DNA of 64,000 nt, from NCBI GenBank assembly GCA_964470105.1, contig CAYXZI010000004.1, positions 5,271 through 69,270 on the forward strand, in the 5' to 3' direction. A program made the translations under genes and the position numbers. Numbering within the stretch: the first letter of the stretch is position 1; every line of letters begins with the position of its first letter. Below the pieces are notes generated by a model. The model was not told the origin of the DNA and did not search any database. It saw only the letters and a list, made by a program, of their open reading frames with translations. Source of the DNA: an uncultured Candidatus Saccharibacteria bacterium (GTDB taxonomy: Bacteria > Patescibacteriota > Minisyncoccia > Phycocordibacterales > PALSA-1337). Positions 1,371 through 43,687 of the stretch are shown here, piece after piece.

Positions 1371-1886
1371 ATGAAAGATACAATACTAATCATTGTTGAT
1401 ATGCAGGATTTCTTTCTCAAAAGATTTCCCATTTCTGTGCAACATGAGATAATAGAAAATCAAAAAATAATAATTGATTTTTGTGTGAGAAGAAATATTC
1501 CCTCCATCATAATTGAGTACAAAGCGGGTGGAGTAGAGAGGGGAAAAACTAAGAAAGAATTGGTAGATAGTATTGGAAATAATCTGGTTAATGTAATCGT
1601 TAAGGATAATAATGGAGGATTTACGAAGACAAACCTAGATGTAGTTTTAAATAAACTCAATATTAGGAAGATAATATTAATGGGGTTAAATGCAAATGGA
1701 TGTATACAAGATACTGTAATCGGTGCTAATAATAGAGGCTATAGGGTAATAACATCTAAGGGGATAATCGCTAATTCATCTTCTGGAAATATGGAAATAT
1801 CTAAACGTAATAAAGAGTGGTATATAAAAAATACTGTCTTTTTTGATAATGTTAAGAGTCTTTACACATACCTTAGTAAAAAATAG
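1371..1886 (+). CDS. Isochorismatase-family (cysteine hydrolase) protein
   Basis: N-terminal ILIIVDMQDFF and an LMGLNANGCIQDTVIGA nucleophile-Cys region typical of the family. Confidence 0.6.
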   Translation: MKDTILIIVDMQDFFLKRFPISVQHEIIENQKIIIDFCVRRNIPSIIIEYKAGGVERGKTKKELVDSIGNNLVNVIVKDNNGGFTKTNLDVVLNKLNIRKIILMGLNANGCIQDTVIGANNRGYRVITSKGIIANSSSGNMEISKRNKEWYIKNTVFFDNVKSLYTYLSKK

Positions 1887-1954
1887 GGGATACTGGTTTC
1901 TATTGTGTACTTATACACAATATCAACTATCCTATTATAGGTTATAATTTATAC

Positions 1955-2350
1955 ATGAAGCACACATTATTGTATCTTATTACGCTACTAGTCATCACTC
2001 TATCTGACTTCACATGGTTTAAGCTTTCCTCATCTTTTTATCAAAAAGAAATAGGATTTTTATTTGGATCTAAAATTAACTATTTACCAGTTGCACTTTT
2101 CTATCTAATATATGCATTTGGTATACTGTTTTTTATTATTAATCCTCAGATTAAAGCTGATTCATCGTACATCACTGTGTTTTTAATAGGTGCTTTTTTC
2201 GGGCTAATAGCATATGGAACCTATGATTTTACTAATAATGCAACAATAAATAATTGGCCTGTTATTGTAACAATTGTTGATATTCTATGGGGAATGATAG
2301 TGACTGGTTTCGCTAGTTTGTTTGTATATATTATAAGTAAATATATTTAA
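1955..2350 (+). CDS. Hypothetical polytopic membrane protein
   Basis: 131 aa with about four hydrophobic helices. Confidence 0.45.
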   Translation: MKHTLLYLITLLVITLSDFTWFKLSSSFYQKEIGFLFGSKINYLPVALFYLIYAFGILFFIINPQIKADSSYITVFLIGAFFGLIAYGTYDFTNNATINNWPVIVTIVDILWGMIVTGFASLFVYIISKYI

Positions 2351-2360
2351 TACCAATTAT

Positions 2361-3026
2361 ATGTATAAAATTAAAACAGAAGGATGCTATACTACACCTA
2401 TGATTATCATATATTCTATAATCGCTGTAATTGTTTTGTGGTCTATCTGGGGATTCTTTTCCTCAAGAGTAGAGAGTGCTGAGTATTCAGTTATTGCTTC
2501 AAAGAATGGTTACGAAATCAGACTATATCCAGAACATATTGTTGCTCAAACAACTGTAAAGGGATCATACAATGAGGCATTAAATGAAGGCTTTCGTATT
2601 ATCGCTGGATATATTTTTGGAAACAATGTTAAGAAGCAAGATATTGCAATGACAGCTCCAGTTGTAGAGGAGACTAGTAAATCTGAATCCATATCTATGA
2701 CTACTCCAGTATCATCAAATATCGACGGTGAATATCACACGATAACTTTTGGTATGCCACGATCATATACATTGGAAACATTGCCCACTCCTTCTGATCC
2801 ACGTGTAAAGATAGAGACCATACCAGAGAAGAAGGTCGCTGTTATCAGATTCTCATGGATACGTACCGAATCTCGTGTTCAATCTAAGAAATTGGAACTT
2901 ATTGATCTATTAAAGAAAGACGGTGTGGTTATCAAAGGTGAGCCACAATACGCTGGATATAATGCACCTTGGACTCCACCATGGATGACTAGAAATGAGG
3001 TTATGATTGAAATTAAAGGTAATTAA
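2361..3026 (+). CDS. SOUL/HBP heme-binding family protein
   Basis: N-terminal TM helix, then YEIRLY ... FRIIAGYIFGNN ... IAMTAPV, matching the SOUL family pattern. Confidence 0.5.
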   Translation: MYKIKTEGCYTTPMIIIYSIIAVIVLWSIWGFFSSRVESAEYSVIASKNGYEIRLYPEHIVAQTTVKGSYNEALNEGFRIIAGYIFGNNVKKQDIAMTAPVVEETSKSESISMTTPVSSNIDGEYHTITFGMPRSYTLETLPTPSDPRVKIETIPEKKVAVIRFSWIRTESRVQSKKLELIDLLKKDGVVIKGEPQYAGYNAPWTPPWMTRNEVMIEIKGN

Positions 3027-3106
3027 GAAGAAGTGGTAAGGATATATGAAATAGTCCAACGGAATGCTTCCCGTTGGACTATTTCATGTGTTAATTCTTG
3101 TACCCC

Positions 3107-4894
3107 TTATTCCTTTCTTCTTGCCTTAGCTCTATCTGTGTCAGTTAGGAATTTCTTTCTCAAGCGTACTGAAAGCGGAGTGATCTCCAGGTATTCATCT
3201 TCGCGCATAGTCTCAAGTCCTCTCTCAACATCTATTTTCCAAGCTGGAGTCAACATGATGTGCTCATCATTTCCTGATGATCGCATGTTAGACATAACCT
3301 TTCCTTTACATGGGTTTACATCCATATCATCTCCCTTTGAAGTATCACCAACAACCATTCCTTCGTAAACCTCTGTAGTTGGTTCAATAAATATACGTCC
3401 TCTCTCTTGTAGATTCCATAGAGCAAACGCCAGAGCCTTTCCTGTCATCATTGATGTCATTGATCCGGTTGAATGCTTCTCAATCTCACCAGCATATGGT
3501 TTGAAGTCAATAAAACGACTAGCTAATATACCTTCACCCTTTGTGTCAATAACGAAAGCATTTCTGTAACCCAAAAGACCACGTGTTGGTATTTCAAATA
3601 GGATTCTACTCAGACCATCTTTTGTCTTCATATCTATCATTGTAGCTTTTCGCTTACCAAGTTTTTCGATGATAGCCCCAGTGAATTCTTCTGGTATATC
3701 AACAGTCAATTCTTCAAAAGGTTCACTCTTTACTCCATCTATATCTTTAACGATAACTTGTGGTTGTGATACTTGTAGTTCATATCCCTCACGTCTCATA
3801 TTTTCTAGTAGAACCGCAATATGTAGTTCACCACGACCGAATACTCTGTAGAATTCATTTGATGAGAAATCAACTCTTAGTCCAACGTTAATTTCCAGTT
3901 CCTTCTCTAGTCTCTCTCGTATTTGTCTACCTGTTACGAATTTTCCTTCACGTCCAGCGAATGGGGAAGAGTTAACAAGGAAGTTTAGGGAGATTGTAGG
4001 TTCGTCAATCTTGATTGCAGGTAGAGCAGGTGTTGCTTCGCTATCAGTTAAAGTCTCACCAATGTATATCTGTGGGAATCCAGCTATAGTTACGATGTCT
4101 CCAGCTGTTGCCTCCTGAATTTCAATTCTTTTCTTTCCTTCAAATGTAAATAGCTTGGTAACACGTCCTTGGTTTACAGTTCCATCAATTTTCTTTTCAA
4201 AAACTGTTTGACCAGTCTTAATTGTTCCATCATAAATACGACCTATAGCTAGTCTACCTAGGAAATTGTCATATCCGAGGTTAAAAGTCTGTACTGTAAG
4301 TGGAGCTGTTGCACTATGATCCTTATTTGCTGGTGGTACATGCTCGAGAATCATATCAAGAAGAGGAGTTAGATCTTTTTTCTCATCTGTGAGTTTTCTC
4401 ATAGCGACTCCTTCACGCCCTATAGCATATATAGTAGGGAAGTCGAGCTGAGCATCATTTGCTCCAAGCTCCATGAATAGCTCTAGAACCATTTCATGAC
4501 AGTGATCAGGATTAGCTGCTGGCTTATCTATCTTGTTGATGATAACTATAGGTTTTAGGCCTAGTTCAAGAGACTTCTTAAGTACGAAACGAGTCTGAGG
4601 CATAGGACCCTCCTGTGCATCAACTACTAGAAGCACCGTGTCGATAGAGCGGAGAACACGCTCTACTTCAGAACCGAAGTCTGCGTGTCCTGGAGTGTCC
4701 ACGATATTGATCTTTGCTCCCTTATATTCAATAGATGTATTCTTGGCATAAATAGTGATACCACGCTCTTGCTCTAGGGCATTAGAGTCCATAGTACCAT
4801 CCTCACCATGGCCACATTGGGTCATTATCGCATCTGTTAGGGTAGTCTTACCGTGGTCTACGTGGGCTATGATTGCTATGTTTCGGATATCCAT
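3107..4894 (-). CDS. typA: Translational GTPase TypA/BipA
   Basis: [15 protein letters not shown] and DTPGHADF G-domain motifs; 595 aa with BipA-like C-terminal domains. Confidence 0.9.
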
Positions 4895-4997: not shown

Positions 4998-5297
4998 CTA
5001 ACTGAGTACCCTCAGTATTCCGTATGTAGTGGTACCACAATTGGTGACCTCTTTTATACTAGCCTGAAATGGCTGGCTGAATTCGACCATGTCACCACTA
5101 ATGATTATGGTATCGGCTACTCTGGTACATTGGGTTACGTTTATTCTGTACACCATCTTCTCACCTACAGGTACGTGTACCTTGTCTACAAAGTCATATA
5201 TTTGATGACAAACATGTACAGAGATTTGAGCTTTCATTTCCTCTGCGTACCTTAGGCTTGATGTGTTGATTTCCTCAACGATAATATACTGTACCAT
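4998..5297 (-). CDS. Hypothetical protein, 99 aa
   Basis: ORF lies between the GatB/YqeY gene and the terminator hairpin. No recognised domain. Confidence 0.35.
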   Translation of the reverse strand: MVQYIIVEEINTSSLRYAEEMKAQISVHVCHQIYDFVDKVHVPVGEKMVYRINVTQCTRVADTIIISGDMVEFSQPFQASIKEVTNCGTTTYGILRVLS

Positions 5298-5364
5298 AGG
5301 ACTCCTTTGTGCAGTTTGTTTACCAAAATCTACACCTCCTAGGTCTATAACGCAAGAAGGTGCA

Positions 5365-5805
5365 CTACTTCACCATCCCTTCAACTACTTCCTTCACATC
5401 AGCTCCATCAGCTTTTCCTTTTAACTCCTTCATTATCATTCCAATGAATTGACCTAGTTTAGCCTTATCAATCGCACCCTTAGACTCCACAACCTTACGT
5501 ATCTCATCCTTGCTCATCATTTGCGGTAGAAATACTTCAAGTATTTTTAATTCAGCCTTTTCTTTTTCAGCTAAATCACTTCTTCCTCCTTTCTCGAATT
5601 GTTCTATAGAGTCTTTATGTTGCTTAACACTTCTTTTGATTAATGTTAAAGCCCCTTCATCATCAATGAAAGGATTAGGATTTCCTTTTGCTATGAGTTC
5701 ATTTGAGAACAGGGCAGTAAGACCTCTTAGAGTATCGAGCTTAATTGAGTCCTTTGCACGCATTGCATCAATAATTTGTTTTTTAATTGTTTCGTGTATT
5801 GTCAT
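5365..5805 (-). CDS. GatB/YqeY domain protein
   Basis: 146 aa with the family pattern (DAMRAKD, LTLIKRS, EKAELKILE). Confidence 0.75.
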   Translation of the reverse strand: MTIHETIKKQIIDAMRAKDSIKLDTLRGLTALFSNELIAKGNPNPFIDDEGALTLIKRSVKQHKDSIEQFEKGGRSDLAEKEKAELKILEVFLPQMMSKDEIRKVVESKGAIDKAKLGQFIGMIMKELKGKADGADVKEVVEGMVK

Positions 5806-5826
5806 AATGTTGATATAATAGCATAT

Positions 5827-6873
5827 ATGAATACCCTTATCATCATACTCATAGTCCTTGTTGCTATTGCCATAATTGTAATGGTCTCAAATTACAGACG
5901 TTCCTCTGGTAGCAAGGATGATATTGGTCTTAAGTTAATACTAGAACAGATAAATGAACTTAACCGTACAGTTGATGACAAGATTGGTCGTGGACACAGG
6001 GATATGCGTGAATCCATGCAGGTTCAGCTATCAGAATCGACCAGAATGATACGTGAGGTAACTGCTGGACTTACTAAACTTGATGAGACGAACAGGCAAG
6101 TGGTTTCTTTTGCAGATCAACTACAAAATCTCCAAGACATTCTTAAGAATCCTAAACATAGAGGTATACTCGGTGAATACTATCTAGAAACCCTATTAAG
6201 CAATGTACTCGCTCCTAATCAATTCAAAATGCAATATATGTTCGCAAATGGAGAGATTGTGGATGCTGCTGTATTTGTAAAAGACAAGATAATTCCAATT
6301 GATTCAAAGTTTTCTCTAGAGAACTACAACAAGCTTTCTCAAGAACGAGATCCAATTGAAAAAGAAAAGTTAGAAAAAGCATTCGTAAATGATTTAAAAC
6401 TTCGTATTCAAGAGACAGCAAAATATATACGACCAAATGAGGGCACTATGGACTTCGCTTTTATGTTCATTCCTCATGAAGCTATATACTATGATCTATT
6501 AATTAATAAGATAGGTGCAATAACAGAGGAGACTGATAATCTCATACAAAGGGCAGCTAATAAGTACAAGGTAATAATTATATCCCCAACATCATTCTTG
6601 GCATATCTTCAGACTGTTTTACAGGGCTTAAAAGCCTTACAGATTGAGGAGACAGCAAAAGACATTATTAAGCGTGTAGATGAGCTAGGAACTCATTTAA
6701 AGAAGTATGAAGAGTATCATGTAAAGCTCGGTACCTCGCTATCAACAGTCGTTAATCACTACAACCACTCTGGTAAGGAGCTAAGGAAGGTAGATAAGGA
6801 TATTTTACGTATAACAGGGGAGACTCCAGGTCTAGATGTGGGGGTGATTGACCATCCAGACGAGATAGTGTAA
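5827..6873 (+). CDS. rmuC: DNA recombination protein RmuC
   Basis: N-terminal TM helix and coiled coil, with FAFMFIPHEAIYYDLL and KVIIISPTSFLAYLQTV conserved blocks. Start placed at MNTLIII to avoid overlap with the upstream gene. Confidence 0.8.
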   Translation: MNTLIIILIVLVAIAIIVMVSNYRRSSGSKDDIGLKLILEQINELNRTVDDKIGRGHRDMRESMQVQLSESTRMIREVTAGLTKLDETNRQVVSFADQLQNLQDILKNPKHRGILGEYYLETLLSNVLAPNQFKMQYMFANGEIVDAAVFVKDKIIPIDSKFSLENYNKLSQERDPIEKEKLEKAFVNDLKLRIQETAKYIRPNEGTMDFAFMFIPHEAIYYDLLINKIGAITEETDNLIQRAANKYKVIIISPTSFLAYLQTVLQGLKALQIEETAKDIIKRVDELGTHLKKYEEYHVKLGTSLSTVVNHYNHSGKELRKVDKDILRITGETPGLDVGVIDHPDEIV

Positions 6874-8336: not shown

Positions 8337-8879
8337 ATGGATCAAGAAAATATTTCAATAAAAAATAGTATTGAAGTGATGGAAAAGGTGATAAAAAGTA
8401 AAATCCTTGTTATTCGCGGTGAAAAGGTAATTCTAGATAAGGATCTTGCAGAGTTATATGAAGTTACAACAAAACGTTTTAATGAGCAAGTCAAAAGGAA
8501 TATAGAAAGATTCCCTAATGATTTTATGTTCAGACTTACGGAGGAGGAGAACTATGGGCTGAACCGGTCGCAAAATGCGACCGGTTCTCAAAAACATCGT
8601 GATCCACGATTTTTACCGTACGCTTTTACTGAACATGGTGTAGCCATGCTTTCATCTGTTTTAAACAGTAAAACAGCGATACAGATGAATATATTGATTA
8701 TTCGGATATTTATAAAAATTAAGGAATGGATTATATCAAACAAAGACCTAGAGCTAAGAGTTGATGAGATAGAAAAGATACAGAGAGGACACTCTGAGTC
8801 CTTAGATTCAGTCGATCTCGCTTTACGACACATTATGGAAGAACCAATTAAACCTCCAGGTAAAATAGGTTTTAATTAA
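8337..8879 (+). CDS. ORF6N-domain (KilA-N-like) DNA-binding protein
   Basis: IRGEKVILDKDLAELYEVTTKRFNEQVKRNIERFPNDFMFRLT and PYAFTEHGVAMLSSVL match the ORF6N family pattern. Confidence 0.7.
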   Translation: MDQENISIKNSIEVMEKVIKSKILVIRGEKVILDKDLAELYEVTTKRFNEQVKRNIERFPNDFMFRLTEEENYGLNRSQNATGSQKHRDPRFLPYAFTEHGVAMLSSVLNSKTAIQMNILIIRIFIKIKEWIISNKDLELRVDEIEKIQRGHSESLDSVDLALRHIMEEPIKPPGKIGFN

Positions 8880-36891: not shown

Positions 36892-37893
36892 CTAGACTAA
36901 TAGATTAGTTGTAAGTGCTACCATCAGTTCCTTATCCTTAGGATCACTTTCAGCAATCAACAGTGCTAAAGCTACTAGTGTATTATCATTTATTTTTCTT
37001 TCACCATTTGCTCGTATATCAATTCTATTAAGTCTCAAGAAGAAAACAAAACAGAATGAAGCTATACGCTTATTACCATCTGAGAATGGATGGTCCTTTA
37101 TGATGAAGTACAGTAGATGAGCTGCTTTTTCATCGAGACTTGAATATAGCTCCTTTCCATCAAAAGTTTGATATATGGTTTTAAGTATACCCCGGAAACT
37201 TCCATCACGTTCTATACCGAAGAGATCTGATGCTTCCTTTTTATCTATTAATACAGTCTTTAAGACTTCAATTGAACTATGAATGAATTCATAATCAAAT
37301 TTCTTTTTTTCAATATCCTTACTTTTCCTTAACTTTAGCTCACCTTCATCATATTCCTTAAGAAATTTCCATGAATTAGCATAGTCATGTATTACAGACA
37401 ACAAGCTATTACTCTCGCCTTGGCTTAACTCTCTTTCTCTAACAGTGCGCTGAATGAAGGAAATCTTTTCTTCTAGATCCTTAAGTATTCTATCTGGGAG
37501 ATTACTAACTCTTTCATTGTTAATAACAATACCTTTAATTAGATACTCTCGAAGTGTTGTAGTGGCCCACTGTCTGAATTTAATTGCCTTTGAAGAATTA
37601 GTACGATATCCGACTGCCAGGATGATGTCTAGTGAATATAAGGTAACTGGCTTATATGAATTAGTATTATGCATATTTTGCATATTGCTTTTTTCATCCA
37701 CCTCACCATCACTGAGTGTATTCTTTATGTGTCTAGACACAACCGACTGATCAATTTCGAACAATTCAGCAATCTGAGCCTGTGTTGCCCAAATTGTTTC
37801 CTTATCTGTGTCAGCTCTCAATTCTACTGTCCCATTAGCACTTGTATATATTACAAGCCTACCATCATCATTTTTAATGATATTTGTGTTCAT
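36892..37893 (-). CDS. RhuM-family N-terminal domain fused to a Fic/DOC domain
   Basis: N-terminal LVIYTSANGTVEL...TIWATQAQIAELF is RhuM-like. The C-terminal HPFSDGNKRIASF matches the Fic motif HPFx(D/E)GN(G/K)R. Confidence 0.7.
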   Translation of the reverse strand: MNTNIIKNDDGRLVIYTSANGTVELRADTDKETIWATQAQIAELFEIDQSVVSRHIKNTLSDGEVDEKSNMQNMHNTNSYKPVTLYSLDIILAVGYRTNSSKAIKFRQWATTTLREYLIKGIVINNERVSNLPDRILKDLEEKISFIQRTVRERELSQGESNSLLSVIHDYANSWKFLKEYDEGELKLRKSKDIEKKKFDYEFIHSSIEVLKTVLIDKKEASDLFGIERDGSFRGILKTIYQTFDGKELYSSLDEKAAHLLYFIIKDHPFSDGNKRIASFCFVFFLRLNRIDIRANGERKINDNTLVALALLIAESDPKDKELMVALTTNLLV

Positions 37894-40934: not shown

Positions 40935-40971
40935 GGTGGCGAGTCTCTTATAGACCGCCACCTTTTCTTTT
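40935..40971 (+). terminator. Intrinsic terminator
   Basis: Stem GGTGGCG / CGCCACC followed by TTTTCTTTT. Confidence 0.55.
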
Positions 40972-41266
40972 ACATAGACGGCGCCCTAGTTGGTTGACTC
41001 ATTAAAAATTCAAGATAAAAATATGGAGATATCTTTGAAACAAAAGAAGGCAGATATTCAAACTCTGTAAACACTTTCTCCTTAAATTCTGGCAAGCAAA
41101 TGACTGTCTCCTTATTCTGTATTAAAGCCTCAGCAGATATAACATGAGGTTGAGGTTTACCATCTACATTTACTATAGTAAATCGTACACGAAATAGGAC
41201 ACCGTTCTTATCTCGAACGATTCTTTCAAAAATACTATTTATATTTTTATTCTGAGTTACTAACAT
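40970..41266 (-). CDS. Hypothetical protein, 98 aa
   Basis: ORF with no recognised domain. Confidence 0.3.
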   Translation of the reverse strand: MLVTQNKNINSIFERIVRDKNGVLFRVRFTIVNVDGKPQPHVISAEALIQNKETVICLPEFKEKVFTEFEYLPSFVSKISPYFYLEFLMSQPTRAPSM

Positions 41267-41612: not shown

Positions 41613-41676
41613 CAGTTCTAGGCTATCTATAAACCTAGTTTGACGAGCGCCAGAATGATCTGGCGCTCTTTCGTAT

Positions 41677-42219
41677 CTATTTTGTCTCCCCAATCTTTAC
41701 CTTAGGAGCTTTCAATACCTTACCGTTCAATTCATACCCCTTCTGAACTACAGTCGTAACCGTATTCCCATTCTTTCCATCCTCTATAGCTTCATCACGC
41801 ATAGGGTCAAACGGTTTACCCATAGGGTCAATTTCCTTTAGTCCAAAGCCCTCAAGTACAGTCTTTAACTGATTTGCAATATATTCTACTCCAACTCTCC
41901 AGTTCTTATCTACCTTCTCCCATACCTCTTTGTTCCCCATAGCCATATTGAAGCTATCCAGAACAGGTATTAGCTCACCAATCAAATTTTCATTTGAGAA
42001 TCTAGCAAAATCCTTCTGAGCTTCCTGGTCTCTCTTTCTAGCATTTAGAAACTCAGCCTTGTCTTTTTGCCAGGAATTAAGATATTCCTGCTTCTCTTCA
42101 ATAGCTTTTTTAAGCTTTTCCTTTAGTGCCTTTACTGATTCCATTGCATTTTCTTCCGCAACTACAGAATCATCGATATTTTCATCTTTTTCAATTGTGA
42201 TATCATTTTCTTCTTTCAT
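41677..42219 (-). CDS. grpE: Nucleotide exchange factor GrpE
   Basis: GrpE family pattern with coiled-coil N-terminus and C-terminal beta domain (LDSFNMA motif). Confidence 0.85.
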   Translation of the reverse strand: MKEENDITIEKDENIDDSVVAEENAMESVKALKEKLKKAIEEKQEYLNSWQKDKAEFLNARKRDQEAQKDFARFSNENLIGELIPVLDSFNMAMGNKEVWEKVDKNWRVGVEYIANQLKTVLEGFGLKEIDPMGKPFDPMRDEAIEDGKNGNTVTTVVQKGYELNGKVLKAPKVKIGETK

Positions 42220-42240
42220 ATAAAATAGTATACGTTAGAA

Positions 42241-42299
42241 TTTTAGATTTGCAAATATTTTAAGTTACATGGTATTGTCATATTGGTAACTGCAACCAT
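42241..42299 (+). repeat. 60-nt promoter/leader repeat, copy 1 (TTGCAA-18-TATTGT)
   Basis: Identical to 42783-42841 across about 59 nt. The palindromic TTGCAA at 42248-42253 also serves as the -35 of the divergent grpE promoter. Confidence 0.6.
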
Positions 42300-42344
42300 G
42301 AAATGCAGAAATTATAGGTGCTTAGCACCAGAAAGTATAGTTCC

Positions 42345-42710
42345 ATGAGAAAAATAACTATTGAGTCTGTTCCAGGTGGTATATCTGAGGCAGGCCTATT
42401 CACCGCAGTTGCAGATGCTGTCCACACACTAGGCAAGAGTGCGGACATTATAGTGTTTGTCGGGGTTTATGGTACGAATGATCCGGATGGCGATCGTACT
42501 GGTCTGCACTACAAGTTAAGGCTTGAGATAAAGGAACCAGCAGCCGGTATCTACTACGCACAGAAGGTTTCAGATGAGTTCAAGCTAAGTGGGGACCAAA
42601 CGACCGCTACCCTAACAATGGCGATTGTCGAGAAGGTAAGGGAGTTCATCAGCAATAAGGCTGCTTACCACTCGCGCCTTGCATCAGCATACGAGTCCTT
42701 ACGACAGTGA
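42345..42710 (+). CDS. Hypothetical protein (GC-rich); paralog of the 42839 gene
   Basis: About 121 aa from MRKITIESV. The ORF track gives a GTG start at 42318. It is preceded by a 16-codon uORF (MKCRNYRCLAPESIVP) whose stop overlaps the ATG. Terminator at 42735-42766. Confidence 0.45.
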   Translation: MRKITIESVPGGISEAGLFTAVADAVHTLGKSADIIVFVGVYGTNDPDGDRTGLHYKLRLEIKEPAAGIYYAQKVSDEFKLSGDQTTATLTMAIVEKVREFISNKAAYHSRLASAYESLRQ

Positions 42711-42782
42711 GGACGATATCATTTCTACATTGCAAAGCGGCAAGGTTTTCCCTTGTCGCTTTTTAATTAGCTCTTAAACCAT

Positions 42783-42841
42783 TTTAGATTTGCAAATATT
42801 TTAAGTTACATGGTATTGTCATATTGGTAACTGCAACCATG
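42783..42841 (+). repeat. 60-nt promoter/leader repeat, copy 2
   Basis: Perfect copy of 42241-42299. Here the ATG at the end of the repeat reads straight into the ORF. Confidence 0.6.
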
Positions 42842-43231
42842 GCACCTAAAACCGTGCCTCAAAGAGAAAGTGTTTGTATGGCAGAGATAACGATAAGGAA
42901 AAGTTTGGAATTCGATGATGAGATTTCTCAAAAGATTTGTGTGGATATAATTGACGCCCTTTCATACTTTGGGAATGAACGCCTTGTCATTGATCAGATT
43001 GATCTTTGGCCTAGGATTGTGGGAGATGAATGTGTCCTATCGGTCACCATTACCCACCGAGCTTCAGGGAGAGTAGAGCAATCTACTTTTGAACTCAACA
43101 ACAATTGGAGTCCACACTCGATCGCATTAGCAATCAAAACACACACAGGTATACCCCTTATGTCAGAGGTACCTGTTACCGAAAGGTTAGTATCGACACT
43201 TGGATCAATTCCAATTACACCGATTGGATGA
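42839..43231 (+). CDS. Hypothetical protein (GC-rich); paralog of the 42345 gene
   Basis: MAPK...MAEITIRKSL... The N-terminal region weakly matches the P1 N-terminus (ITI ... DAV/DAL ... FG). Terminator at 43249-43278. Confidence 0.45.
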   Translation: MAPKTVPQRESVCMAEITIRKSLEFDDEISQKICVDIIDALSYFGNERLVIDQIDLWPRIVGDECVLSVTITHRASGRVEQSTFELNNNWSPHSIALAIKTHTGIPLMSEVPVTERLVSTLGSIPITPIG

Positions 43232-43276
43232 TTGGTCCACAAACAAAAGCGCCTGGGTAAACCCCAGGCAACTTTT

Positions 43277-43687
43277 TTATCTCTTAGACCACTGTGGACT
43301 CTTTCTCGCTTTCTTAAGTCCGAACTTACGTCTTTCCTTAGCTCTTGGGTCTCTCTTTAGAAGCCCTGCCTTCTTTAACTTTCCTCTTAGCTCTTTATCA
43401 TATTCAATTAATGCACGAGCTATACCATGTCTTACTGCATCAGCTTGTCCACTTATTCCTCCTCCCTTTGTAACAACTGTAATCTTAAACTTAGTTTCAG
43501 TTAGTTTGGCCTCTTTCATTGATTCAGATGCCATCATTTGCAGCTCTTTTGTTGGGAAATATTCTTCAATAGTTTTTCCATTGATATCATAAGATGTCTT
43601 TGCAGCAGGAGTAATACGAACACGAGCAGATGCTGTCTTTCTTCTCCCTATAGCTTCTATGTATTTGTCCGCTTTCATTGTTGTCAT
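43277..43687 (-). CDS. rpsI: 30S ribosomal protein S9
   Basis: C-terminal PRAKERRKFGLKKARKSPQWSKR. Confidence 0.9.
   Translation of the reverse strand: MTTMKADKYIEAIGRRKTASARVRITPAAKTSYDINGKTIEEYFPTKELQMMASESMKEAKLTETKFKITVVTKGGGISGQADAVRHGIARALIEYDKELRGKLKKAGLLKRDPRAKERRKFGLKKARKSPQWSKR

Follow-up and report, generated by a model that had tools for sequence, protein, structure and literature searches.

A Perfect 61-nt Repeat Between grpE and rpsI as a Probable Promoter Region Doubled by Tandem Duplication

Results

Organization of the grpE–rpsI Region

The DNA analysed here is a 64 kb window (the whole stretch under study, in whose numbering all positions are given) from an uncultivated, ultrasmall bacterium, and this work deals with a 61-nt sequence (ATTTTAGATTTGCAAATATTTTAAGTTACATGGTATTGTCATATTGGTAACTGCAACCATG) that occurs twice in it, in front of two small genes, gene 1 and gene 2, located between grpE and rpsI. 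Read along the plus strand, the region contains grpE (41677..42219, minus strand; PF01025), the first copy of the 61-mer (42240..42300, plus strand), the 44-nt remainder of the gene 1 leader, gene 1 (42345..42710, plus strand; 121 aa, a member of a small orphan family), an intrinsic terminator (42737..42764, plus strand; GCGGCAAGG-TTTTC-CCTTGTCGC followed by TTTTT), the second copy of the 61-mer (42781..42841, plus strand), a 36-nt leader remainder, gene 2 (42878..43231, plus strand; 117 aa from a probable ATG at 42878), a bidirectional terminator common to gene 2 and rpsI (43251..43269, both strands), and rpsI (43277..43687, minus strand). The last of these codes for ribosomal protein S9 (PF00380 in a syntenic locus), is convergent with gene 2, and is the last gene of a ribosomal protein/rpoA cluster that continues with rplM, rplQ, rpoA, rpsD, rpsK, and rpsM. 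Gene 1 and gene 2 constitute separate transcription units, since each of them is ended by its own terminator. That of gene 1 is homologous to the family-gene terminator in the related loci L002, L005, L087, and L094, and the bidirectional one is identical in L003.

Identity and Copy Number of the 61-nt Repeat

The two copies were identical at all 61 positions, with their starts 541 nt apart; the duplicated element of some 60 nt (about 59/60 identity) described in the earlier note was therefore real, and even better conserved than stated. Both copies were also present in an independent assembly (L001, an NCBI contig of 1,503 nt from GCA_013566075.1), which corresponds to window positions 41673-43175 and differs from them at a single site (43050 T>G, causing I58S in gene 2). 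A search for more copies returned these two alone: no third copy was found in the window at up to three mismatches (nor any in 100 shuffles), and the 20-mer TCATATTGGTAACTGCAACC had 0 matches in 185,579 species genomes. With a degenerate 19-mer, 34 matches were obtained in JGI metagenomes, of which one (L128) was a true family leader and the rest were chance matches or an unrelated repeat. That unrelated repeat (..CGTGCTTCAAAACCTGATGGCC..GGTAACTGCAACCATGACAAAGG..) lay behind many of the 19-mer matches and occurred on many contigs (L098, L099, L101, L102, L105, L108, L113, L121, L123, L126, L130, and L131).

The 61-mer showed no inverted repeat, and it folded no better than shuffled sequences (z of 0.68 and -0.57), as was also the case for both leaders. 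Rfam 15 at E<=10 gave nothing over 42240-42344 or 42781-42877; its four weak matches in the window were all elsewhere, one of them (sR44, 42986-43062) inside the coding region of gene 2. A tRNA or att site at the repeat was ruled out, the sole tRNA of the window being located at 1235-1306. Rather than being a special element, the 61-mer corresponds to the intergenic stretch that separates grpE from a small gene in divergent orientation.

A Relic of rpsI at the Junction

The gene 1 terminator is followed by a 15-nt stretch (42767..42781, minus strand) that is left over from the 3' end of rpsI. This relic reads TTAGCTCTTAAACCA versus TTATCTCTTAGACCA in the functional gene and marks the duplication junction. 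It aligns with the stop codon and last four codons of rpsI (relatives read TTATCTCTTACTCCA in the alignment of the 3' flanks), and copy 2 begins exactly at it. The relic would encode WFKS* versus the conserved WSKR*, two disabling substitutions, and has thus changed since its function was lost. The arrangement is that of a tandem duplication: a head-to-tail repeat with a period of 541 nt, in which the relic abuts the start of copy 2 and the two ends of the unit are thereby joined. In the event that we propose, a unit comprising the promoter, the small gene, its terminator, and the last five rpsI codons would have been duplicated in tandem within the grpE–rpsI slot, its ends lying 20 nt upstream of the grpE ATG and five codons inside rpsI. 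The outcome would be two monocistronic units with identical promoters and different 5' untranslated regions (UTRs).

Predicted Promoter Elements Within the Repeat

From its motifs and their conservation, we infer that the 61-mer holds a sigma-70-type extended -10 promoter and that only its last 16 nt are transcribed, copy 1 thus covering most of the grpE/gene 1 divergent intergenic region (the promoter together with 16 nt from the 5' end of the gene 1 mRNA). The predicted -35 of gene 1, and also of grpE on the opposite strand, is the palindromic TTGCAA (42249..42254, both strands; second copy at 42790-42795), which aligns with TTTACA of relatives and is separated by 18 nt from the TATTGT of gene 1 and by 16 nt from the TATACT of grpE on the minus strand. 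The extended -10 of gene 1, TGGTATTGT (42270..42278, plus strand; copy 2 at 42811-42819), has TGATATATT or TGGTATTTT as its aligned counterpart in every relative, even in L002, where all sequence further upstream has been replaced. Distant relatives (L005, L083-L097) read TTTACA, 16 nt, TGATATATT, and then a near-invariant block from GGTAAC, which in the window is found at 42285; the -35, extended -10, and GGTAAC columns were kept across 13 upstream regions. Because strong conservation begins there, transcription would start near 42285 (near 42826 in copy 2). Hexamers and spacing (16-18 nt) are thus those of a sigma-70-type promoter and are kept at orthologous positions, in line with the earlier reading of the repeat as a promoter plus the start of a leader in front of two units.

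For grpE, the predicted -10 TATACT (42227-42232, minus strand) ends 7 nt before the ATG and is conserved in relatives (8 nt before the ATG in L083-type genomes), so that the grpE mRNA is probably leaderless or nearly so, and conserved in this respect. The earlier TTGCAA-17-TACTAT spacing was incorrect, the distances being 18 nt to TACTAT and 16 nt to TATACT. The shared TTGCAA can serve as the -35 of a leaderless grpE, as had been predicted; this sharing is, however, confined to the clade of the window, and in L083-type genomes the promoter elements are separate and the intergenic region measures 154 nt. The shared -35 is the centre of a perfect 10-bp palindrome, ATTTGCAAAT (42248-42257), kept in L002 and L003 and absent from L083-type genomes, which could be an operator.

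The 5' Leaders and the Start of Gene 2

The leader of gene 1 (type 1 5' UTR, 60 nt, 42285..42344, plus strand) consists of GGTAACTGCAACC, two hairpins (CTGCA-N9-TGCAG, 42291-42309, and GGTGC-TTA-GCACC, 42317-42329), and a Shine-Dalgarno-like AGAAAG, and only positions 42285-42300 of it are inside the repeat. This leader was 97% identical between the window and L002, for which the synonymous divergence (dS) of grpE was 1.9, and gene 2 lacks most of it. Across relatives, it (GGTAACTGCAACCTTGAAATGCAG..AAGTGCTTAGCACTAGAAAG) was 81-98% identical, with downstream proteins at 26-80% and synonymous sites of grpE saturated; it was located at 2512-2571 in L002, 3939-4000 in L083, 2942-3000 in L091, 2388-2446 and 2939-3000 in L094, and 250-311 in L128. 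The strongly constrained non-coding element of the locus is therefore the 5' UTR of gene 1, mostly outside the repeat.

RNAalifold returned two short hairpins for this leader, the second with one covarying pair (A-U in 7 sequences, G-C in 3, and G-U in 1). The first hairpin was broken in 3 of 11 sequences, and unpaired stretches were as conserved as paired ones. The GTGCTTAGCAC palindrome, with one compensatory G-C/A-T change, fits both an RNA hairpin and a palindromic DNA operator. A covariance model of our own for the leader scored 81.9 bits on the type 1 leader of the window and, when run on the window plus 80 related loci (906 kb), matched in the window and in L005 only; on the leader of gene 2 it gave 16 bits (E 0.3). 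Neither the leader palindrome nor GGTAACTGCAACC occurred again in the window. The specific part of the gene 2 leader (type 2; 42842..42877, plus strand) contains AGAGAAAG after a hairpin, GGCAC-N8-GTGCC (42841-42858), that starts one base inside the repeat and that in L003 reads GACAC..GTGTC, a compensatory change.

The 16-codon upstream open reading frame (uORF) noted before at the end of copy 1 was present (42298-42348), its stop overlapping the ATG of gene 1. It was rejected as a conserved feature, relatives having TTG and a stop after five codons. The corresponding ATG of copy 2, earlier taken as the start of gene 2, is in frame, and the database product P0003 (130 aa) starts with it at 42839; it is absent, however, in L003. 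Since L003 lacks this ATG and the two proteins align from MAE(I/L)TI, translation most likely starts at 42878.

Relatives and the rpsI–grpE Gap

A GrpE search of species-representative genomes provided 80 Patescibacteria loci, whose titles include Candidatus Taylorbacteria, Paceibacteria, and Parcubacteria. The order rpsI then grpE was kept in nearly all 80, and the gap between both genes ranged from 7 bp to about 5.5 kb, with unrelated small genes inside. In L003-L082, in most of which the gap is at about 5000-6000, its contents were membrane or coiled-coil proteins and a NUDIX gene, with proteins of more than 1,000 aa in L042 and L044; the gap of L091 contained a class II ribonucleotide reductase and an HTH gene. 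The rpsI–grpE gap is a variable insertion hotspot between two conserved genes.

Taylorbacteria-like relatives carried a single unit, with either gene 1 (L002) or gene 2 (L003), and the window carries both in tandem. In L003, the GrpE of which is 96% identical, only a gene 2 homologue was found (50-51% aa identity), directly beside grpE, and the intergenic region runs into a leader of gene 2 type. This region, in the closest relative found, is identical to the 61-mer at 50/61 positions (82%), with grpE dS between the window and L003 of 1.24; the dS of gene 2 for the same pair was 1.09, comparable to that of grpE. In L002 (GrpE 91% identical, grpE dS 1.89), only gene 1 was present (74% aa identity), and the 61-mer was split: 20 nt of its left end are still next to grpE, and an inserted gene for 230 aa separates them from its right 32 nt, which are followed by the leader and gene 1. 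Towards L083-type relatives, the promoter part was 54-62% identical. About 48 nt around the gene 2/rpsI terminator were identical between the window (43238-43285) and L003 (5466-5513, minus strand), which contrasts with the 50% identity of gene 2 and the grpE divergence between the same two loci.

With the exception of L128, all family members whose context was read adjoin rpsI at its 3' end. In L002, L005, L091, and L094, grpE is separated by other genes from the family gene, and the latter retains a promoter of its own. The constant neighbour of the family gene is rpsI, and not grpE.

The Proteins Encoded by Gene 1 and Gene 2

In a set of 5.8 billion clustered proteins, the product of gene 1 had one relative and that of gene 2 none beyond itself, and a search from the L005 protein added eight family members. 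A profile search of 1.84 billion representatives gave five matches at E<=0.001, comprising P0013 (E of 1.6e-08), three others at E<=1e-30, and a probably spurious match to a protein of 3,142 aa (3.4e-04); gene 2 was not retrieved by this whole-library search. No match was obtained in Pfam, NCBIfam, PADLOC, or PDB sequence searches. Relatives were absent from IMG/VR and BFVD gave no convincing fold match, and a phage origin was ruled out on these results. Gene 1 belongs to a lineage-restricted family of about 120-aa proteins, of which gene 2 is probably a very diverged relative. This family evolves fast: its nonsynonymous divergence (dN) was 10-45 times that of grpE, and its ratio of nonsynonymous to synonymous divergence (omega) was 0.16-0.43 versus 0.01-0.05 for grpE.

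The faint similarity between both proteins reported previously (ITI...DA(V/L)...(L/F)G) was statistically undetectable, BLASTP of gene 1 against gene 2 giving no alignment at E<=100. By hhalign, gene 1 matched the L005-type proteins with P=1e-4, and gene 2 matched them with P=0.0014 (probability 17%). The genes share slot, orientation, size, predicted topology, fold matches, homologous flanks, and the leader start GGTAACTGCAACC, so that their proposed paralogy found backing there, but not in any significant sequence or profile similarity. AF2 predicted a b-a-b-b-b-a-a order of strands (b) and helices (a) for gene 1 (alignment of eight sequences; pLDDT 75.7, pTM 0.74) and b-a-b-b-b-a for gene 2 (single sequence; pLDDT 64, pTM 0.60). 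In Foldseek searches against the PDB, ribosome hibernation factors (HPF, RaiA/YfiA, pY, RafH) were the top 14 hits of gene 1 and the top 25 hits of gene 2, with E from 4e-4 to about 0.1 and TM-scores of 0.4-0.6. On these models, gene 1 and gene 2 would share a fold and, together with the shared slot, this supports a common origin.

Membership of the hibernation-factor family PF02482 was not established. None of 10 family members had a Pfam, NCBIfam, or PDB-sequence match, the net charge was -1 for gene 1 and -7 for gene 2 (-3 to +4 for other members), and evolution was very fast; the acidic character of gene 2 argues against binding to rRNA.

The earlier description of both genes as GC-rich is correct for gene 1 (48.4%, the window having 36.9%) and only to a mild degree for gene 2 (41.8%); the 61-mer has 27.9%. 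GC at third codon positions was 47.5% in gene 1 and 36.4% in gene 2. Family genes (gene 1 of the window, L002, L003, L083, L087, and L097) had 40-48% GC versus 33-38% in the adjoining grpE, an excess seen in most genomes, with L094 as the exception. Foreign origin or biased gene conversion at a recombination hotspot are possible causes of it.

Parallel Cases in the Gap

Two other loci contained comparable arrangements. In L094, a gene for a 126-aa protein and the family member P0012 are in tandem with a period of 551 nt. Between these units, some 126 nt that span terminator, promoter, and leader match at 81-100% (23/23 over the GTGCTTAGCAC hairpin and AGAAAG), and the coding regions are diverged beyond recognition, the 126-aa protein being missed by the family hidden Markov model (HMM; E=7.4). 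Tandem copies with clearly homologous leaders can thus lose all protein similarity. Region 1860-3369 of this locus contains three small plus-strand genes (142, 126, and 122 aa) between grpE and rpsI, of which the last two have the homologous upstream regions. In L005, an inserted NUDIX gene (PF00293) lies between the two copies of a 42-nt repeat (5407-5448 and 5951-5992, 98% identical) that ends in the grpE -10 TATACT; here a foreign gene has received a copy of the grpE promoter, a second, independent case of promoter duplication at the locus. From both parallels it follows that copying of a resident promoter together with a gene is recurrent here.

Tandem-unit periods in the gap were 530, 540, 541, 544, 549, and 551 nt, as well as 584 (L009) and 588 nt (L008). 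Units with similar periods (L004 4054-5146; L005 5407-5992; L023 5335-5915; L094 2313-2989; window 42240-42841) contain genes for 121-164 aa, and the similarity of their periods may be a coincidence.

Other Features of the Window

Between grpE and dnaK, the window contains a 98-aa ORF (40970-41266, minus strand) with no Pfam match. Most of the 80 related loci have it in the same place, with 28-84% identity, which makes it a conserved, uncharacterised companion of the chaperone genes. Accessory-type genes were found amid the housekeeping region, namely those for a RhuM/Fic-domain protein (36892-37893) and an ORF6N-domain protein (8337-8879).

Discussion

Taking these results together, we regard it as likely that the 61-mer is an ordinary sigma-70-type promoter region that has been doubled by tandem duplication of a whole unit. 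The overall event is an ordinary one in evolution, and the repeat is not a dedicated regulatory or mobile element. Several observations weigh against parts of this proposal. Promoter and transcription start rest on consensus and conservation, and promoter-like matches in our scan outnumbered those expected from shuffled sequence by a factor of only about two. The 185,579 species genomes and the JGI metagenomes yielded no other genome that carries both genes. The relic, with 15 nt and two differences, dates the duplication weakly, and by a rough estimate 0 differences between the copies would arise without conversion with P of about 0.05. As to the proteins, hhalign of gene 2 against gene 1 gave P=0.03, and the family HMM gave E=82 for gene 2 of the window and E of 1.7-2.1 for its L003 homologue; gene 2 could thus have no relation to the family and have been captured downstream of a copied promoter, like the NUDIX gene of L005.

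Two ways of explaining the perfect identity had been offered before, selection and gene conversion, and the first is not needed. If purifying selection held the copies, the 61-mer would be a regulator site or RNA element that controls both genes together with grpE in heat shock. Some non-coding constraint is indeed visible, the region being 82% identical to L003 in spite of the grpE divergence, and ATTTGCAAAT is a perfect palindrome common to the promoters of gene 1 and its divergent neighbour grpE. Divergent co-regulation with grpE is possible in the genome of the window. However, 82% between lineages is insufficient to account for 61/61 within one genome: 11 of 61 positions have changed between the window and L003, and at that distance purifying selection alone does not give full identity. 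In addition, the promoter part is poorly kept in L083-type relatives, just 16 nt of the repeat are predicted to be transcribed, and neither the folding scores nor Rfam pointed to an RNA element. Copy 2 lacks the grpE -10, the adjacency to grpE is broken in the four loci with intervening genes, and the -35 is shared within the clade of the window only. The window contained 0 matches to CIRCE (TTAGCACTC-N9-GAGTGCTAA) at up to three mismatches in 64 kb. Neither HrcA nor a canonical HPF domain was found among 30 window ORFs scanned, which says nothing on the rest of the genome. The link to heat-shock gene control drawn in the earlier note was consequently not sustained, and we consider selection on the 61-mer improbable. 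Gene conversion or duplication, either of them recent, accounts best for the identity.

Between these two, our preference goes, at slightly better than even odds, to an old duplication followed by a recent gene conversion, which would have made the promoter copies identical over the whole stretch that was still homologous. In agreement with this, identity runs from the duplication junction to the point where type 1 and type 2 leaders split, i.e. over the whole still-homologous segment. The copies match at 61/61 within the genome versus 50/61 with the L003 orthologue; with the window as the only genome found with both copies, a recent duplication could also account for this. Given the grpE dS to L003 and L002, the 0/61 differences cannot date from those splits; an old duplication and a recent conversion are suggested by the divergence of coding regions, leaders, and terminators and by the two disabling substitutions of the relic. 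The direction of copying may also be read from the sequence: the CTGCA arm (42291-42295) pairs with TGCAG in the gene 1 leader only and is CTAAA in L003, but is intact in copy 2, which suggests that the sequence of copy 1 replaced that of copy 2. Less probable, although it deserves serious weight, is a recent recombinational assembly of the two units, for example by a single-step acquisition in which DNA of a close relative, comprising the intergenic region, gene 2, its terminator, and rpsI, was joined to the resident gene 1 unit by homology-facilitated illegitimate recombination anchored in rpsI, the displaced 3' end of the resident rpsI being the relic. One such event yields the exact order observed, relic included; gene 1 and gene 2 are single in the nearest relatives, the gap is a hotspot of 7 bp to 5.5 kb, and the NUDIX gene of L005 shows that a foreign gene can enter with a promoter repeat. 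This route concerns the origin of the repeat and not its nature, the identity meaning recency. Against it, the relic has changed since it became one while the 61-mer has not, the CTGCA arm of copy 2 points to copying from copy 1, and the dS between gene 2 and its L003 homologue is about that of grpE, so that no close donor has been sampled.

A further possibility considered is that the genes are mobile cassettes and the 61-mer their recombination site, either attC-like as in integrons or belonging to an integrated element as its att site. The direct repeats do bracket a gene-sized unit of 541 nt, units of 530-551 nt are found in the same gap in L004, L005, L023, and L094, and gene 1 is GC-rich relative to the genome. 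The sequence is nevertheless single in relatives, where it is a plain promoter region beside grpE; it has no imperfect-palindrome structure and no folding signal; its neighbours are dnaK, grpE, and ribosomal protein/rpoA genes, with no integrase among the 30 window ORFs scanned; viral contigs contain no relatives; and the repeats of other genomes are different ones (terminators, the grpE promoter). A cassette site is therefore very improbable. Least probable of all, to the point of being negligible, is that a collapsed or chimeric join in the assembly produced the second copy, even though the source is a metagenome-assembled genome: in a separate assembly, these 1.5 kb recur with a single-nucleotide difference and include both copies, 61 nt is shorter than a typical read, and the relic at the junction makes biological sense.

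The surroundings are more interesting than the repeat: an rpsI–grpE hotspot, a fast-evolving orphan family with a predicted fold resembling that of hibernation factors, and a conserved leader. On the predicted models, it might be speculated that these proteins are a new, fast-diversifying hibernation-factor-like branch specific to the Taylorbacteria-like clade, with genes located where the ribosomal protein cluster ends, that the nearly invariant 60-nt leader (GGUAACUGCAACCUUGAAAUGCAG..GUGCUUAGCAC..AGAAAG) controls them as a new cis-regulatory RNA or operator, and that tandem copies, as in the window and L094, generate stress-factor variants; we hold this to be unlikely as a whole. RaiA has been reported to be essential in a cultivated member of the Patescibacteria (PMC11665869). 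If the proteins bound ribosomes or the leader were a regulatory RNA, a testable question on translation control in Patescibacteria would follow. The locus offers a clean case of a small-genome bacterium giving a second gene an identical promoter by tandem duplication, and a warning: where non-coding DNA is perfectly identical next to coding sequence that has diverged, recency or gene conversion should be suspected first, and not function.

Several known systems resemble parts of this locus. The proteins share with HPF, RaiA (YfiA), and pY (PF02482) the predicted b-a-b-b-b-a fold, a similar size, and a position beside a ribosomal protein cluster and a stress chaperone gene; they differ in the lack of a sequence match, TM-scores of 0.4-0.6, net charges of -1 and -7, and fast evolution, HPF being conserved. 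With the control of grpE-dnaK by CIRCE/HrcA, the locus has in common the adjacency to grpE and a leader palindrome, (A/G)GTGCTTAGCAC(T/C), containing TTAGCAC, which is like a CIRCE half-site; here, however, the arms are in the opposite order with a 3-nt gap, the palindrome is outside the 61-mer, and neither CIRCE nor, in the scanned ORFs, HrcA was found. Integron cassettes with attC sites likewise consist of small promoter-proximal genes of unrelated sequence with a repeated non-coding element between them, but the repeat described here is a promoter and not a folded site, has two copies, and accompanies genes with their own terminators and no integrase in sight. The 60-nt 5' UTR of gene 1, a candidate regulatory leader far more conserved than its gene, recalls the autoregulatory leaders of genes for ribosomal or ribosome-associated proteins; it differs in having no Rfam match, mostly primary-sequence conservation, and a single covarying pair. 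Tandem duplication with concerted evolution also differs in some respects, since here the 61-nt promoter segment only is identical, coding similarity is undetectable, and conversion is deduced. It shares with the locus, nonetheless, the head-to-tail unit, the relic of a flanking gene at the junction, and one identical segment among otherwise diverged sequence, and recombination between the repeats that dropped one unit would yield the single-gene state seen in L003.

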